A DNA stretch of 4,277 nt from a virus. Lineage: Duplodnaviria; Heunggongvirae; Uroviricota; Caudoviricetes. The stretch is taken from the IMG/VR virus record IMGVR_UViG_2585427792_000010, positions 1 through 4,277 of that record, one strand, 5' to 3'. Below are positions 1 to 4,277 of this stretch, in pieces (within the stretch, counting starts at the first letter, position 1; each line of letters starts with the position of its first letter). The notes beneath the pieces were generated by a model. That model was not told the origin of the DNA and searched no databases. It worked only from the letters and a program-made list of their open reading frames with translations. Both the position numbers and the translations under genes were made by a program.

Positions 1-25
1 ACCTCGGTTTACAGGAAACGGTAAA
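1..25. repeat. Left inverted repeat / crossover site of the invertible segment, truncated by the window edge
   Basis: Positions 1-25 (acctcggtttacaggaaacggtaaa) are the exact reverse complement of 3055-3079; the first mismatch is at position 26. Position 1-17 corresponds to the inner half-site plus centre of the 26-bp site at 3063-3088. Confidence 0.7.
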
Positions 26-962
26 TCAGGCTTCTGGCGCATTACAGAAAAACCAGAACGGCGCAGATATTCCGGGAAAAGATACCTTCACCAAAAATAT
101 TGGGGCCTGCCGCGCATATAGCGCATGGCTGAATATTGGTGGCGATAGTCAGGTCTGGACAACCGCGCAATTTATTTCGTGGCTGGAGAGTCAGGGAGCA
201 TTTAACCATCCTTACTGGATGTGCAAAGGCTCATGGACTTATGCAAATAATAAGGTCATTACAGATACAGGTTGCGGAAATATTTGTCTTGCAGGTGCTG
301 TGGTGGAAGTTATTGGCACTCGCGGCGCAATGACCATACGCGTTACCACGCCGAGCACGTCCAGCGGTGGCGGAATTACTAACGCTCAATTCACTTATAT
401 TAATCATGGTGATGCTTATGCTCCTGGCTGGCGACGAGACTACAACACGAAAAATCAACAACCTGCATTTGCTTTAGGGCAAACAGGAAGCACTGTCGGA
501 AATGATAAAGCTGTTGGCTGGAACTGGAATAGCGGGGTCTATAACGCAAACATTGGTGGCGCATCGACATTAATCCTCCACTTCAATATGAATACGGGGA
601 GCTGCCCTGCTGTACAGTTCCGCGTGAATTACAGGAACGGCGGTATTTTTTATCGTTCAGCGCGTGATGGTTATGGATTTGAGGCTGACTGGTCAGAGTT
701 TTACACCACGACCCGCAAACCCTCTGCGAGAGATGTTGGTGCATACACGCAGGCAGAATGTAACTCAAGGTTTATTACAGGTATTCGCCTTGGCGGTCTG
801 TCATCTGTTCAGACATGGAATGGCCCCGGCTGGTCTGACAGGTCAGGTTATGTCGTTACGGGTTCAGTTAACGGAAACCGTGATGAATTAATTGATACAA
901 CTCAGGCAAGGCCAATTCAGTATTGCATTAATGGGACGTGGTATAACGCGGGGAGTATTTAA
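3..962 (+). CDS. Start-less alternative tail-fibre C-terminal (receptor-binding) cassette (S'v / Hv'-like); silent in this orientation, expressed only after inversion fuses it to the constant part of the fibre gene
   Basis: My own translation shows the frame of track ORF 219..962 is open from position 3 with no stop. It begins LGLQETVN, identical to residues 391-398 of the minus-strand fibre. It ends ...RPIQYCINGTWYNAGSI, resembling the fibre C-terminus ...RPIQKYINGTWYNVAQV. No convincing SD precedes the Met at 219. Confidence 0.8.
   Translation, partial: LGLQETVNQASGALQKNQNGADIPGKDTFTKNIGACRAYSAWLNIGGDSQVWTTAQFISWLESQGAFNHPYWMCKGSWTYANNKVITDTGCGNICLAGAVVEVIGTRGAMTIRVTTPSTSSGGGITNAQFTYINHGDAYAPGWRRDYNTKNQQPAFALGQTGSTVGNDKAVGWNWNSGVYNANIGGASTLILHFNMNTGSCPAVQFRVNYRNGGIFYRSARDGYGFEADWSEFYTTTRKPSARDVGAYTQAECNSRFITGIRLGGLSSVQTWNGPGWSDRSGYVVTGSVNGNRDELIDTTQARPIQYCINGTWYNAGSI
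950..955 (+). promoter_or_regulatory. Shine-Dalgarno-like GGGGAG for the plus-strand chaperone gene, embedded in the last codons of the alternative fibre cassette
   Basis: GGGGAG at 950-955, 9 nt upstream of the ATG at 965 (12 nt from the ATG at 968). Confidence 0.4.
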
Positions 963-964
963 CG

Positions 965-1498
965 ATGATGCACTTAAAAAACATTACTGCTGGCAACCCT
1001 AAAACAAAAGAGCAATACCAGCTAACAAAGCAATTTAACATCAAATGGCTTTATTCAGATGATGGAAAAAACTGGTATGAGGAACAAAAGAATTTCCAGC
1101 CAGACACTTTGAAAATGGTCTATGACCATAACGGCGTTATTATTTGTATTGAAAAGGATGTTTCAGCAATTAATCCAGAAGGCGCAAGCGTCGTTGAATT
1201 ACCTGATATTACAGCAAATCGCCGGGCTGATATTTCGGGTAAATGGATGTTCAAAGATGGCGTAGTGATAAAGCGAACTTATACCGAGGAAGAACAGAGG
1301 CAGCAGGCAGAGAATGAAAAACAAAGCCTGTTGCAACTTGTCAGGGATAAAACCCAGCTATGGGACTCACAGCTACGGCTGGGCATCATTTCCGACGAGA
1401 ATAAACAAAAATTAACAGAGTGGATGCTCTTTGCGCAGAAAGTCGAATCGACAGACACTTCCAGCCTGCCAGTAACGTTTCCCGAACAACCAGAATGA
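965..1498 (+). CDS. Alternative tail fibre assembly chaperone (U'/Tfa'-like paralog), partner of the silent alternative fibre tip
   Basis: 177-aa [27 protein letters not shown].... Roughly 70% identical by eye to the minus-strand chaperone over the first ~110 aa, then a divergent C-terminal ~60 aa. Starts 2 nt after the stop of the upstream cassette (960-962). GGGGAG at 950-955 is a plausible SD. The homologous start may be the second ATG at 968. Confidence 0.87.
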   Translation: MMHLKNITAGNPKTKEQYQLTKQFNIKWLYSDDGKNWYEEQKNFQPDTLKMVYDHNGVIICIEKDVSAINPEGASVVELPDITANRRADISGKWMFKDGVVIKRTYTEEEQRQQAENEKQSLLQLVRDKTQLWDSQLRLGIISDENKQKLTEWMLFAQKVESTDTSSLPVTFPEQPE

Positions 1499-1501
1499 GA
1501 G

Positions 1502-1529
1502 AAGGCCCGCAATCGGGCCTTAATTTTTA
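1502..1529. terminator. Putative intrinsic terminator hairpin between the convergent chaperone genes
   Basis: Perfect 8-bp GC-rich stem (aaggcccg 1502-1509 and cgggcctt 1514-1521) with a 4-nt loop (caat), followed on the plus strand by aattttta. It lies in the 28-bp gap between the stops of the two convergent genes (1498 and 1527). The U-tract is weaker for the minus-strand transcript. Confidence 0.5.
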
Positions 1530-2054
1530 CTCTGGTTTTTGTGGCCATTCAGGCTTTGCCGTATCCACACGGCTGACCAGAACGCTGTAGCGTTCCCATG
1601 ACTCCAGTCGTGCGCGCTCCTCATCCGTCGCCATATTCAGCCTGACAGCGCGTTCCAGCGGCTGGATGACTGATTCAGCTTCGGAAAGCAATGCGGCCTT
1701 TTGTGATTCGGCTTGTTGTTGCTGTTCGTCTGCCGTATAAATCCGTTTAACTACAGCTCCATCCTTAAACATCCACTTTCCTGAATCATCAGCGCGGCGA
1801 TTGGCTGTAATATCGGGAACCTCAACGACGCTAAAACCTTCAGGGTTAAGCGTGGATGCATCTTTGGTGATGGCGACAATAATATTATTTTCATCGTAAA
1901 CAATCTTTATTGTATCTGGTTGAAAGTTTTTCACTTCCTCATACCAGTTTTTACCGTCTTCGGACCATAACCAGATAACATCAAAATTCTTTGTTAGCTG
2001 ATATTGTTCTTTCGTTTTAGGATTACCAGACTTAATATTTTTTAAATGCTGCAT
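1527..2054 (-). CDS. G: Tail fibre assembly chaperone (P2 gpG / Mu U / lambda Tfa family), partner of the currently expressed fibre tip
   Basis: 175-aa ORF starting [24 protein letters not shown]..., which I recall as matching P2 G. ATG at 2054-2052 lies 3 nt after the fibre stop (2058-2060). An AGGTG Shine-Dalgarno (2061-2065, minus strand) sits 6 nt upstream of the ATG, inside the 3' end of the fibre gene. Stop TAA at 1527-1529. Confidence 0.88.
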
Positions 2055-2057
2055 AAT

Positions 2058-4277
2058 TTACACCTGTGCTACGTTATACCATGTGCCATTGATGTATTTT
2101 TGTATTGGTCTGAAGATGGCTTCATCATCGCCATCTACTTCACCAATGATTCTTAATCCGGTAATTGCGTGTCCGGCTTTTTCATAACGACCACCACGCG
2201 CCATCAATTGAACAACACGTGTGCCAAGTCGGACATCTCTCACATAGCGTGAGTCAAAATTGCCATAATTTCCGGGAATAATTTGCGCACCGCAAAGCCA
2301 GTTGCCATTGTTGTCCATGTACGCCTGACCATCGGTGCCATTGGCTGTCCTTGAATTATTAATCATGTAAAAACCAAACTGGTAGTTACCAAGTCCACCG
2401 ACAAAAAATTTGCGTTCTGCATGGTCTTGTCTTAACAAAGCCTGCGCAGAACTTGTTGATACTGCGTTTCTACCAAAAATGACATTCTGGTTTCGCATAT
2501 CAATCCATGAGGTTGAGCCACTATTAATAGCAAACCTGTTTGCATACACCCAGGCGTTAGTTGTTATATCTCCTGTAACATCCAGACCATGCCCCATAGT
2601 TATGCGGCCAGTTCTGAGATTAAGCGTAAAGGGACGTAGTGGCCCTATATCACCATTTTCCCCCTCATTCTCTCGTGTAGGGATGATATGCAGGCATTCT
2701 TCAGAACGGCGAAAAATGGCACCAAAAGATGAATTAAATATCCTCAGTGCATTGACTGTCGATATTTTTACTTCACTGCTGAAAAGGGCTTTAACAAGAA
2801 CAGACAAAGCACCCCATTTAAGATTCATCAGGTCTTTTGTTGTGGTGCTTTGTTTGCTTCTCCATTTGAAATATTCATTGCCGTTGTCGCCTGTTTCAAA
2901 CCACATGTATGAATCAGTGTCGCTGTCGGCATCATTTTTAAATCCAATCTTTGCCCAGTCAGTATTTCGAATCCAGGCAAGGATTGAGTCGTTTTCAAAA
3001 GTAAGCCCACCGGATAAGGTATCGCCTGTCTTTTGAACGGCGTTACCAGCCCTGTTTACCGTTTCCTGTAAACCGAGGTATTCGATAACGGCGGCAACGG
3101 TCGATTTCGCAAGAATATCCCGCCCGACTTTTGTCAGGGTTGCCAGGCTGGCGACATCATTCCCCGTAAAATACGGAAACCTGTCTGCCGCAGTAGCAAG
3201 CCCGGCCAGCGCCGTCAGGGTGGCATCTTTCGGTTGCTTACCCGCAAGCGCGTTAGTCATGGTGGTCGCAAAATTCGGGTCGTTGCCCAGCGCCGCCGCT
3301 AACTCGTTCAGCGTATTCAGTGCGTCAGGCGACGAGTCTACAAGGGCGGCAATCGCGGCCATCACATAAGCCGTACTTGCGATCTGAGTATTATTAGTAC
3401 CTTTTGGCGCAGTTGGCGTTGTTGGCGTTCCGGTCAGTGCAGGACTATTTAAGGGCGCTTTCTTGTTCGTTTCATCCATTACCGCCTTAACCGCTTTCGA
3501 TGTCGCGGCCAGTGTTTCAGACGTGCTGTTGGTGGCACTACTGAGCTGGACTATCCCTTTTTGTGCCGTCGTGGCGTCCTGAGCGGTATATTTTGCGTTA
3601 GCAAGGTCATACGCGGCCTTTACTGCTTTCGGCGTTGCAGCCTGCGTTTCAGACGTGCTGTTGGTGGCGCTACTGAGCTGGACAAGGCCTTTTCGCGTCG
3701 TGCTGGCATCCTGCGCAGTATATTTACCGTTAGCAAGATCATACGCGGCCTTTACTGCTTTCGGCGTTGCAGCCTGCGTTTCAGACACGCTGTTAGTGGC
3801 GCTACTGAGTTGAACAAAGCCTTTTGCGGTCAGCGAGGCGTCCGGGTGACGTCGTGACTGTTCATGCTCTTTCAGTTTGTCATCCACGTAATCCACTGTG
3901 GCCATCACCATGGTGTTATCCACGGTAAGCGCCACGGTGGCAGTGCTGGATACGGTCAGAATGGTGCGAAATGTTTGTGCACGACCGGACCCTTCGGCAA
4001 CGGCTGGCTTGTAACTTTCGGCAGTATTTCCCACCGCGATTAAATCGCCGTGCTCATCAAATACACCAATTTCCCGGATCCAGAATCCGCCCGTTTCAGG
4101 AGGAATAACCAGCTCCGCAATAATGCGGTTCTGATGTGTTGCGTCCAGGATGACGCGATTAACAGTATGTCGCCACACCTCATGCACCAGACGGGTCTGC
4201 TTACTGTTTGGTGTGGGCAACGTGCCGCCACCGTCGCCCACGGCCATATGAGTCAGGCGGACAGGCTTACCATCTGG
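2058..4277 (-). CDS. H: Phage tail fibre protein, P2 gpH-like; 5' end runs off the window. Constant N-terminal shaft about 3077-4277, currently joined variable receptor-binding C-terminus 2058-3076
   Basis: 729-aa ORF on the track (2058..4247). My translation of 4248-4277 in the same frame (PDGKPVRLTH) has no stop, so the Met at 4247 is internal. From memory, the N-terminal region (MAVGDGGG..., IAELVIPPE..GGFW, ESYKPA.AEGSGR) and the C-terminal end (GNFDSRYV.DVRLGTRVVQLMARGGRYEKAGH.ITGLRIIGEVDGDDEAIFRPIQKYINGTWYNVAQV) match P2 tail fibre H. Contains 44-aa tandem repeats with the QLSSATNSTSET.AATPKAVK motif typical of phage fibres. Stop TAA at 2058-2060. Confidence 0.9.
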   Translation of the reverse strand, partial: PDGKPVRLTHMAVGDGGGTLPTPNSKQTRLVHEVWRHTVNRVILDATHQNRIIAELVIPPETGGFWIREIGVFDEHGDLIAVGNTAESYKPAVAEGSGRAQTFRTILTVSSTATVALTVDNTMVMATVDYVDDKLKEHEQSRRHPDASLTAKGFVQLSSATNSVSETQAATPKAVKAAYDLANGKYTAQDASTTRKGLVQLSSATNSTSETQAATPKAVKAAYDLANAKYTAQDATTAQKGIVQLSSATNSTSETLAATSKAVKAVMDETNKKAPLNSPALTGTPTTPTAPKGTNNTQIASTAYVMAAIAALVDSSPDALNTLNELAAALGNDPNFATTMTNALAGKQPKDATLTALAGLATAADRFPYFTGNDVASLATLTKVGRDILAKSTVAAVIEYLGLQETVNRAGNAVQKTGDTLSGGLTFENDSILAWIRNTDWAKIGFKNDADSDTDSYMWFETGDNGNEYFKWRSKQSTTTKDLMNLKWGALSVLVKALFSSEVKISTVNALRIFNSSFGAIFRRSEECLHIIPTRENEGENGDIGPLRPFTLNLRTGRITMGHGLDVTGDITTNAWVYANRFAINSGSTSWIDMRNQNVIFGRNAVSTSSAQALLRQDHAERKFFVGGLGNYQFGFYMINNSRTANGTDGQAYMDNNGNWLCGAQIIPGNYGNFDSRYVRDVRLGTRVVQLMARGGRYEKAGHAITGLRIIGEVDGDDEAIFRPIQKYINGTWYNVAQV
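2061..2065 (-). promoter_or_regulatory. Shine-Dalgarno (AGGTG) for the minus-strand chaperone gene, embedded in the last codons of the fibre gene (translational coupling)
   Basis: The minus-strand sequence upstream of the ATG at 2054 reads agcacAGGTGtaaattATG, giving a 6-nt spacer. Confidence 0.5.
3055..3079. repeat. Right inverted repeat, inside the fibre coding sequence at the constant/variable junction
   Basis: Exact 25-bp reverse-complement match to window positions 1-25. Encodes LGLQETVN of the fibre protein. Confidence 0.7.
3063..3088. other. Candidate 26-bp serine-invertase crossover site (gix/cix/pix/hix-like): TTCCTGTAAACC-GA-GGTATTCGATAA
   Basis: Imperfect palindrome of two 12-bp half-sites (TTCCTGTAAACC, and TTATCGAATACC on the other strand) around a central GA dinucleotide. 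The left half and centre are the part duplicated at the window start. From memory it closely resembles the Mu gix site; this was not verified by alignment. Confidence 0.6.
3477..3845 (-). repeat. In-frame tandem repeat, 132-bp period (44 aa), about 2.7 copies, in the constant shaft of the fibre gene
   Basis: The motif gtttcagacgtgctgttggtggc recurs at 3514, 3646 and 3778 (with variants), a spacing of exactly 132 bp. The protein shows KGFVQLSSATNSVSETQAATPKAVKAAYDLANGKYTAQDASTTR, then KGLVQLSSATNSTSETQAATPKAVKAAYDLANAKYTAQDATTAQ, then KGIVQLSSATNSTSETLAATSKAVKAV.... Confidence 0.85.

Follow-up and report, generated by a model that had tools for sequence, protein, structure and literature searches.

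Tail-fibre cassettes of the Mu type, which can be inverted and which carry a mosaic joint, have reportedly been described since the early 1990s. The reference systems are the G segment of phage Mu, with its gix sites, the Gin invertase and the gene pairs S/U and S′/U′, and the C segment of P1 and P7, with cix and Cin; an enhancer is annotated in the cin gene of both P1 and P7. The proposal of a second role for inversion sites, as evolutionary joints, goes back to Sandmeier (1994), as that work is summarised in PMC3945230 and PMC8986868. Inversion of the tail-fibre locus in P2-like prophages has been demonstrated experimentally (PMC4272514), and the Phi4_5prime segment of E. coli EC958 has been found by long reads in both orientations within one culture (PMC4134206, Table 3). 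The paper on the P2-like phage P88 makes no mention of inversion (PMC5285337). Publications already cover the cassette, the site, the P2-like carriers and the idea of an evolutionary joint, and nothing in the locus described here is new as a discovery.

The window, i.e., the whole 4277-nt stretch of DNA that was analysed, very probably contains a host-range cassette that is invertible and of the Mu G-segment type, carried by a P2-like prophage or phage of P88/Xuanwuvirus type (Peduoviridae). The anatomy of the locus, the identity of its site, the two orientations found in nature, the differing lineage affinities and the clustering of homology endpoints are matters of observation. The features are collected in Table 1.

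P88 (Peduoviridae, Xuanwuvirus P88; KP063541) aligns with the entire window without a gap at 96.3% identity. It has an identical right site and the same gene order, as follows: invertase, Sv′, U′, U, Sc::Sv, then P2-type baseplate genes. The window DNA is, however, not P88 itself. In the middle of the current tip (window ~2300–2650), it is P7-like instead, and there, as in parts of U and U′, its differences from P88 reach 25% per 100 nt. Among E. coli complete genomes, the best match to the window is 94.9%.

Window 1–2447 and 2784–3095 match the Mu G segment at 90–95%. The alternative tip is 98.9% identical to that of D108, the gix site of Mu agrees with the right site at 24 of 26 positions and has the same central TC, and both tips correspond to the solved structures of Mu S and S′. 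Mu differs in the middle of the current tip (2447–2784) and in its constant part, which is unrelated: Mu Sc reads …NKPLFIQNLGLQETVN, and the homology reaches only to window 3095, where the site has its outer edge. P7 matches window 36–3045 at 95.9% and provides the best match of the current tip. At the cix site of P1 and P7, their S proteins also have a …VGRDILAK…YLGL motif. In P1 and P7, however, the Mu-like DNA lies within a larger, 4.2-kb segment, the crossover sites of which (central TT; 21/26 for the right site against P1 cixR) are located ~0.6 kb further out and are followed by LRELGTSGEK….

P2 gpH/gpG has the same type of shaft, and its homology extends through the site (window 2787–3693, 89.5% ungapped) and recurs in the last part of the tip and the chaperone (window 1543–2264, 91%). 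The differences are the central ~520 nt of the tip and the lack in P2 of an invertase and an inverted second cassette; P2 has a lone 25/26 copy of the site. In lambda Stf (orf-401/orf-314), the ~325 nt upstream of the site, ending …VLEYLG, are 77% identical. Lambda differs in having the outer half-site only, an unrelated tip (AGENSAFP…) and no inversion system. A lambdoid prophage in E. coli C2 does carry the invertible cassette, in the flipped orientation.

Table 1. Features of the window, with coordinates, strand and the basis of each assignment.
Feature	Position	Strand	Basis or remark
Left crossover site, cut by window edge	1..17	+	Inverted repeat and 17-mer match
Alternative variable tip (Sv′)	18..962	+	Open frame without its own start codon; would be fused to Sc once inverted
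Tail-fibre assembly chaperone U′, cognate to alternative tip	965..1498	+	PF02413; silent in present orientation
G+C-rich hairpin followed by T-run, terminator-like	1502..1521	+	Consensus match only; between convergent chaperone genes
Tail-fibre assembly chaperone U, cognate to current tip	1527..2054	-	PF02413 Caudo_TAP
Current variable tip (Sv), in-frame fusion to Sc, Mu S / P7 Sv′ type	2058..3062	-	Structure and DNA matches
Right crossover site (gixR-like), complete 26 bp	3063..3088	-	Within tail-fibre reading frame
Constant part (Sc), P2 gpH type	3089..4277	-	PF12571 N-terminal tail-collar fibre domain and PF03406 x3
Three tandem 132-nt units encoding Phage_fiber_2 repeats	3484..3879	-	Repeat analysis and Pfam

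The 26-bp right site, TTATCGAATACCTCGGTTTACAGGAA (the reverse complement of window 3063–3088), is built on the minus strand as TTATCGAATACC-TC-GGTTTACAGGAA. Its central TC is at 3075–3076, and it encodes ...IEYLGLQE in the tail-fibre frame. The sequence-only reading had placed the joint at 3054–3088, and this interval proves accurate, comprising the 26-bp site plus 9 bp of adjoining inverted repeat. The LGLQETVN stretch that it described is likewise encoded in frame, at 3080–3057 (−) and at 3–26 (+). The right site and the Phi4_5prime crossover site of EC958 have the same sequence.

Window 1–25 repeats 3055–3079 perfectly in inverted orientation, a match of 25 nt that takes in the central TC and the inner half-sites. 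The window has exactly two copies of the 17-mer ACCTCGGTTTACAGGAA, at 1–17 (+) and 3063–3079 (−); the chance expectation is 0.01 matches, and two copies were found in 0/200 shuffles. The window's left edge falls 3 nt outside the central dinucleotide of the left site. Thus, the window includes the innermost 3 nt of the outer half-site, the central TC (4–5) and the whole inner half-site GGTTTACAGGAA, with TTATCTAAAACC the expected outer half-site beyond the edge. A full left site, TTATCTAAAACCTCGGTTTACAGGAA (24/26), is found at the same place in P88 (L001 3992–4017) and in E. coli E110019. The two sites are inverted and have identical central dinucleotides, the outer half of the left one being seen only in P88 and E110019. 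A search of the segment with the 17-mer, allowing up to 3 mismatches, found no extra crossover or quasi-sites, and a Min-type multiple-inversion system was rejected on this ground.

Between the sites lie mirror-image pairs of tip and chaperone, each of which can be fused in frame to a single constant 5′ part, as seen in the ORF map, a virtual inversion and Pfam searches. The flipped junction built in silico is an open frame with Sc in frame with Sv′. The current tip matches the Mu tail fibre S (PDB 5YVQ) with an E-value of 2.9e-147, and the alternative tip matches Mu S/S′ (PDB 8JU3) at 1.7e-219. The two tips had been described as unrelated beyond about 20 weakly similar residues. This is too strong, as they also have ~70 C-terminal residues in common (38% identity, E 5e-8); the common N-terminal stretch is ~16 residues long, and only the central ~200–250 residues are unrelated. 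The chaperones U and U′ are 58% identical. The DNA of U is 91% identical to P2 G plus the 3′ end of H, and the exact U′ protein is shared by P2-like and Mu-like prophages. The 8 loci that encode it are 92–96% identical, and none of them is the source of the window DNA.

It is proposed that a Gin-family serine invertase would act on the inverted pair of 26-bp sites, with crossover at the central TC of each. Recombination would flip the ~3.07-kb segment between window 4–5 and 3075–3076. In the present orientation, the P2 H-like shaft would be made as a fusion to Sv, together with chaperone U. In the inverted state, the shaft would be in frame with Sv′ and expressed with U′, and the phage would gain a different receptor specificity. 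Such an element explains how one prophage can make two kinds of tail fibre and hedge between hosts.

Both orientations were observed across genomes, not within the source sample. Among E. coli complete genomes, at a query coverage of at least 80%, the junction of Sc with the current tip is present in 355 and that of Sc with the alternative tip in 126. P2-like prophages with an identical U′ protein also differ in orientation: L008, L012 and L015 are flipped with respect to L009 and L011.

No invertase gene lies within the window, which stops inside the left site. In P88 and E. coli E110019, a recombinase gene ends 64 bp beyond the window's left edge, and the P88 invertase has 195 aa and is 86% identical to Mu Gin. 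The cassette might be a frozen relic, having the anatomy of an invertible element without any switching, with the present tip the sole one expressed. The lack of an invertase gene in the window fits this idea, as does the fact that the recombinase is reduced to a fragment in some relatives (a 195-nt CDS in L006; EC958 Phi4); in P2, the site is a single copy and there is no switch. We nevertheless regard a relic as unlikely, since the site portions within the window match perfectly over 25 nt, the frames of the alternative tip and U′ are open and intact, and a full-length Gin-like invertase is encoded so near the window edge in the closest relatives. In addition, the identical EC958 site is inverted despite a truncated local invertase, presumably being acted on in trans. 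We infer that this particular copy of the cassette probably still inverts.

Upstream of the site, the protein had been said to follow the P2 H pattern, and it does. The PF12571 match has an E-value of 3.8e-48 (Pfam), the three PF03406 (Phage_fiber_2) repeats are 44 aa each, and blastn identity to P2 H is 76–92% by stretch. The P2 pattern does not end at the site, however, as P2 H continues ungapped for ~270 nt past it. The fibre gene homologous to this one follows Tail_P2_I, Baseplate_J, GPW_gp25 and Phage_base_V genes in P88, E110019 and L008–L015.

Separate searches with the three pieces, as the sequence-only reading had suggested, gave best matches in differing lineages. The constant part belongs with P88 (98.1%), other Xuanwuvirus phages (97.8%) and P2 H (85%). 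The alternative tip is closest to P88 (99.8%), then D108, then Mu and P7 (both 96.3%), and the current tip is closest to P7 (96.9%), with P88 at 91.8%. One could argue that there is no mosaic, that is, that the three pieces are of one lineage and diverged in place, and the gap-free alignment with P88, a P2-like phage, would agree with that. We find this exceedingly improbable. The identity to P88 is uneven rather than uniform, with a 300-nt patch of up to 25 mismatches per 100 nt, and a single lineage for all pieces was ruled out by this unevenness together with the P7 best match of the current tip. Moreover, the segment is 93–99% identical to Mu, D108 and P7, the constant parts of which are unrelated or only ~70% similar, and other Xuanwuvirus phages, whose constant part is 97.8% identical, differ over the first half of the alternative tip. 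The element shows that receptor-binding tips are traded among P2-like, Mu-like, P1-like and lambdoid phages.

Where homology stops is informative about the joint. Endpoints lie at or beside the site: 3088–3095 for Mu-like phages, 3068–3070 for P1/D6, 3045 for P7 and 3073, adjoining the central dinucleotide, for lambda Stf. In a sample of 60 evenly spaced E. coli records, which are not phylogenetically independent, 44 do not cross the site, and in 39 of these the endpoint is at most ~45 nt from the site centre; some endpoints are 30–45 nt off the site rather than on it. In a panel of peptides, YLG is followed by four different continuations. Two shaft types (P2/P1/lambda and Mu) are found upstream of YLG and at least four tip types downstream. 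As part of the coding sequence (…IEYLGLQETVN…), and conserved from one phage family to another, the site also marks a recurrent boundary of shaft and tip. The claim that one stretch serves as both inversion site and evolutionary joint is thus upheld by the EC958-identical site, the two junctions in genomes, the uneven affinities and the clustered endpoints.

The site is one joint among several. Further joints are found at about 2264–2787, about 503 and about 3562, the last of these being near the joint of a lambdoid prophage (L006) that shares the final ~490 nt of the constant part. Divergence from P88 is likewise patchy (1300–2200, 2300–2600 and 3300–3500), and none of the patches is bounded by the site.

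These other joints bear on how the joint at the site arose. It may simply be a boundary between protein domains: ordinary or relaxed homologous recombination would act anywhere in conserved stretches, only chimeras joined between shaft and tip would fold and survive, and the invertase site would merely coincide. Joints elsewhere do fall at repeat or domain edges, namely at ~3562 in the fibre repeats and at 2264–2787 around the central receptor-binding core. Protein-level conservation across P2, P1, P7 and lambda extends over the ~45 residues that precede YLG, the 25/26 site of P2 is kept without an invertase, as a coding constraint would predict, and lambda stf/tfa mosaics arise by homologous recombination with prophages (De Paepe et al.). 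We take this to be a serious possibility, though short of an even one. Against it, lambda Stf has the outer half-site only, with homology that stops beside the central dinucleotide, and Mu-like homology begins within a few nt of the outer edge of the 26-bp site. Such precision is predicted by exchange at the site, yet selection on a domain boundary is still compatible with it. We infer that recombination at the site itself may have created the joints.

A more specific proposal is that the invertase drives the exchange, with Gin/Cin-type enzymes occasionally joining a true site to another phage's site or quasi-site. Joints would then be placed exactly at the central dinucleotide, and the outer half-site of lambda Stf, with its endpoint beside the centre, and the lone 25/26 site of P2 H would be footprints of such events. 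We hold this to be rather doubtful. As invertase-driven exchange was proposed in the 1990s (Sandmeier 1994), only its direct demonstration would be new.

The locus may be of practical use in predicting or engineering phage host range and in annotating start-less alternative tips. Lacking a start codon, such a tip is readily mistaken for a short tail-fibre gene, as happened in P88 and E110019. The left end of the window lies inside a repeat, and mixed orientations were considered as the cause of a possible assembly break there; the right repeat is read through uninterrupted. At the right end, the ATG at 4247 is an internal codon of the fibre gene. The gene runs off the window, and its P88 homologue encodes a tail-fibre protein of 764 aa.

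The crossover site is present in two inverted copies. Positions 3055-3079 and 1-25 are perfect inverted copies of each other, and the 17-mer ACCTCGGTTTACAGGAA occurs at two places only in the window, 1-17 (+) and 3063-3079 (−); two copies were found in 0/200 shuffles (expected by chance, 0.01). On the coding strand, 3088→3063 reads TTATCGAATACC-TC-GGTTTACAGGAA and is a Gin/Cin-type site of 26 bp. This right site matches both Mu gix sites at 24/26 positions, with the central TC in common, and P1 and P7 cixR at 21/26. In E. coli EC958, the Phi4_5prime crossover site has exactly these letters, and a 3106-bp tail-fibre segment is found there in both orientations in PacBio reads (PMC4134206, Table 3). 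The partner site is cut by the left edge of the window, 3 nt outside its central dinucleotide; the complete left site in P88 and E. coli E110019 is TTATCTAAAACCTCGGTTTACAGGAA. Both copies encode LGLQETVN in frame, and when the segment between 4-5 and 3075-3076 is inverted in silico, the constant part of the fibre (Sc) is joined in frame to the start-less tip. The sequence-only reading had thus placed and described the site correctly.

Of the complete relatives, the P2-like Escherichia phage P88 (Peduoviridae, Xuanwuvirus) is the closest, aligning without gaps over all 4277 nt at 96.3% identity. Its DNA invertase gene ends 64 bp past the left edge of the window and encodes a protein with 86% identity to Mu Gin; E110019 is arranged likewise. 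Sc and the current tip (Sv) adjoin without a break in 355 complete genomes of E. coli, as do Sc and the alternative tip (Sv′), the flipped junction, in 126, with identity up to 98.9%. These two junctions and the EC958 match bear out the claim of an inversion site. Among P2-like prophages encoding an identical U′ chaperone, L009 and L011 have the window orientation and L008, L012 and L015 the flipped one. Tail-fibre loci of P2-like prophages have been shown experimentally to invert in EPEC (PMC4272514). We infer that the window copy is an active switch, with the invertase and the left outer half-site lying beyond the window.

The earlier proposal was that the site is also an evolutionary joint. 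When the three pieces were compared separately, their best relatives differed: P88 for Sc and Sv′, P7 for Sv. Identity to P88 is likewise uneven (98.1, 99.8 and 91.8%). A single lineage with even identity throughout, which would have refuted the proposal, is not what the pieces show.

Features of the window and identities of the three pieces to their relatives
Feature	Position	Strand	Remarks
Constant part (Sc)	3089-4277	−	P88 98.1%; other Xuanwuvirus 96-98%; P2, Wphi and relatives ~85% over 87% of length
Current tip (Sv)	2058-3053	−	P7 96.9%; RCS47 (P1-like) 96.7%; P88 only 91.8%
Alternative tip (Sv′)	27-962	+	P88 99.8%; Yersinia phage vB_YpM_39 99.7%; D108 and PhiR68_1 98.9%; Mu and P7 96.3%
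Tail-fibre gene	4277→2058	−	Open frame to right end of window
Caudo_TAP chaperone gene (U)	2054→1527	−	Pfam; follows tail-fibre gene on its strand
Second chaperone gene (U′)	965-1498	+	Pfam; faces minus-strand genes
Start-less open frame (alternative tip)	First bases of window to 962	+	Upstream of U′; no start codon
Terminator-like hairpin	1502-1521		6 G-C pairs and T-run; between convergent U′ and U

Sc had no match in any Mu-like phage, and only ~70% identity, over parts, to P1/P7. Other Xuanwuvirus with a 97.8%-identical Sc match Sv′ in its second half only, at 87%. On a mismatch map, the window is nearly identical to P88 at 1-1300, 2700-3300 and 3500-4277. Patches of divergence occupy 1300-2200, 2300-2600 (with as many as 25 mismatches per 100 nt) and 3300-3500; over 2400-3000 the window barely differs from P7.

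Where homology stops was mapped with a query of 651 nt that has the site in its middle (window position = 3401 − q; site q313-338, centre q325-326). In the phage collection, matches to Mu, D108, SfMu, PhiR68_1 and Mu-like Yersinia phages start at 3088-3095, the outer site edge, those to P1 and D6 at 3068-3070, and those to P7 and RCS47 at 3045. Matches to lambda-type Stf genes come from upstream and end at 3073, beside the central dinucleotide. In 60 evenly spaced records of the 1356 matching E. coli ones, which are phylogenetically non-independent, the match crosses the site in 16, and 39 of the 44 others end within about 45 nt of its centre. A panel of peptides agrees: the window, P88, P2 H, P1 and P7 S, lambda Stf and a lambdoid prophage all have …TALAGLAT…PYF…VGRDILAK…V(I/L)(E/Q)YLG, after which come four unrelated continuations (LQETVNRAGNAVQK…, LQETVNQASGALQK…, LRELGTSGEK… and AGENSAFP…), the first two of which have another upstream shaft in Mu. 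Such joints could originate by invertase-mediated exchange, by recombination in a short conserved stretch, or by selection at a domain boundary.

P2 itself lacks an invertase and a second cassette. Its gene H (AF063097, 3858-3883 = window 3063-3088) holds a lone 25/26 copy, TTATCGAATATCTCGGTTTACAGGAA, which looks like a fossil or quasi-site. P2 and the window align without gaps straight across the site (2787-3693, 89.5%); then ~520 nt differ, and the match resumes at 1543-2264 (tip end and chaperone, 91%). The P2-type character therefore extends past the site, contrary to what had been proposed; in the shaft before it, it agrees with Pfam and with the identity to P2. The receptor-specific core of Sv is roughly 2264-2787. 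In lambda stf (J02459, ~1700-1725 = window ~3073-3100), 77% identity to Sc ends beside the central dinucleotide; the recognisable outer half-site TTCTTGAATACC-TT is kept, whereas the inner half-site is absent and an unrelated tip follows. A lambdoid prophage near bioA/ybhB in E. coli C2 (NZ_CP010117, locus 4446-9772) carries the window's cassette in flipped orientation, fused to a lambda-type Stf N-terminus. It shares the last ~490 nt of Sc (97.5%), has its own joint in the fibre repeats near window 3562, and retains a 195-nt remnant of its recombinase gene. Endpoints cluster at the site and lineages differ by piece, and other joints (about 3562, about 2264-2787) exist. The finding is real and its interpretation essentially correct.

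Haggard-Ljungquist et al. and Sandmeier et al. reportedly described in 1992 how P2, P1, Mu, lambda and T-even phages exchange tail-fibre segments horizontally, and Sandmeier is said to have discussed in 1994 the role of crossover sites in this process. A mosaic joint at an invertible cassette is textbook phage biology restated, and GenBank already holds a phage 96% identical across the whole window. A summary similar to that of De Paepe et al. is given in PMC8986868.

Pfam assigns to residues 1 to ~390 of the long protein an N-terminal tail-collar fibre domain of the P2 type and three Phage_fiber_2 repeats, to its tip a Gp34_trimer-like domain, and to the start-less frame a gp37_C-like domain. 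Sv corresponds to the solved Mu fibre S structures 5YVQ/9KI1, and Sv′ to the Mu S′ structure 8JU3. The tips had been called unrelated beyond about 20 residues; ~16 N-terminal residues are indeed shared, but so are ~70 C-terminal ones (38%, E 5e-8). U and U′ are 58% identical. The hairpin is likely a terminator for whichever cassette is transcribed. The ATG at 4247 is internal to the tail-fibre gene, because the P88 homologue has 764 aa.

Several further observations can be added. The current-tip core, 2300-2650, reaches 25 mismatches per 100 nt to P88 and is nearly identical to P7; here a small part within the receptor-binding core has been swapped, and the inversion site does not bound it. 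The exact 177-aa U′ is unchanged in P2-like and Mu-like prophages (the latter being L010, L013 and L014) and occurs in 1730 blocks of the collection index; therefore, its cassette appears very widespread. Three tandem 132-nt units at 3484-3879 each encode a 44-aa Phage_fiber_2 repeat. Fibres of relatives have 672, 716 and 764 aa, differences near multiples of one unit, so shaft length may vary through repeat copy number. Finally, Sv′ is annotated as a short "tail fiber protein" in its own right, starting at an internal ATG, in P88 (4219-4962 of locus L001 = window 219-962) and likewise in E110019 (3303-3962 of locus L007 = window 303-962); these calls are an annotation artefact of invertible cassettes.
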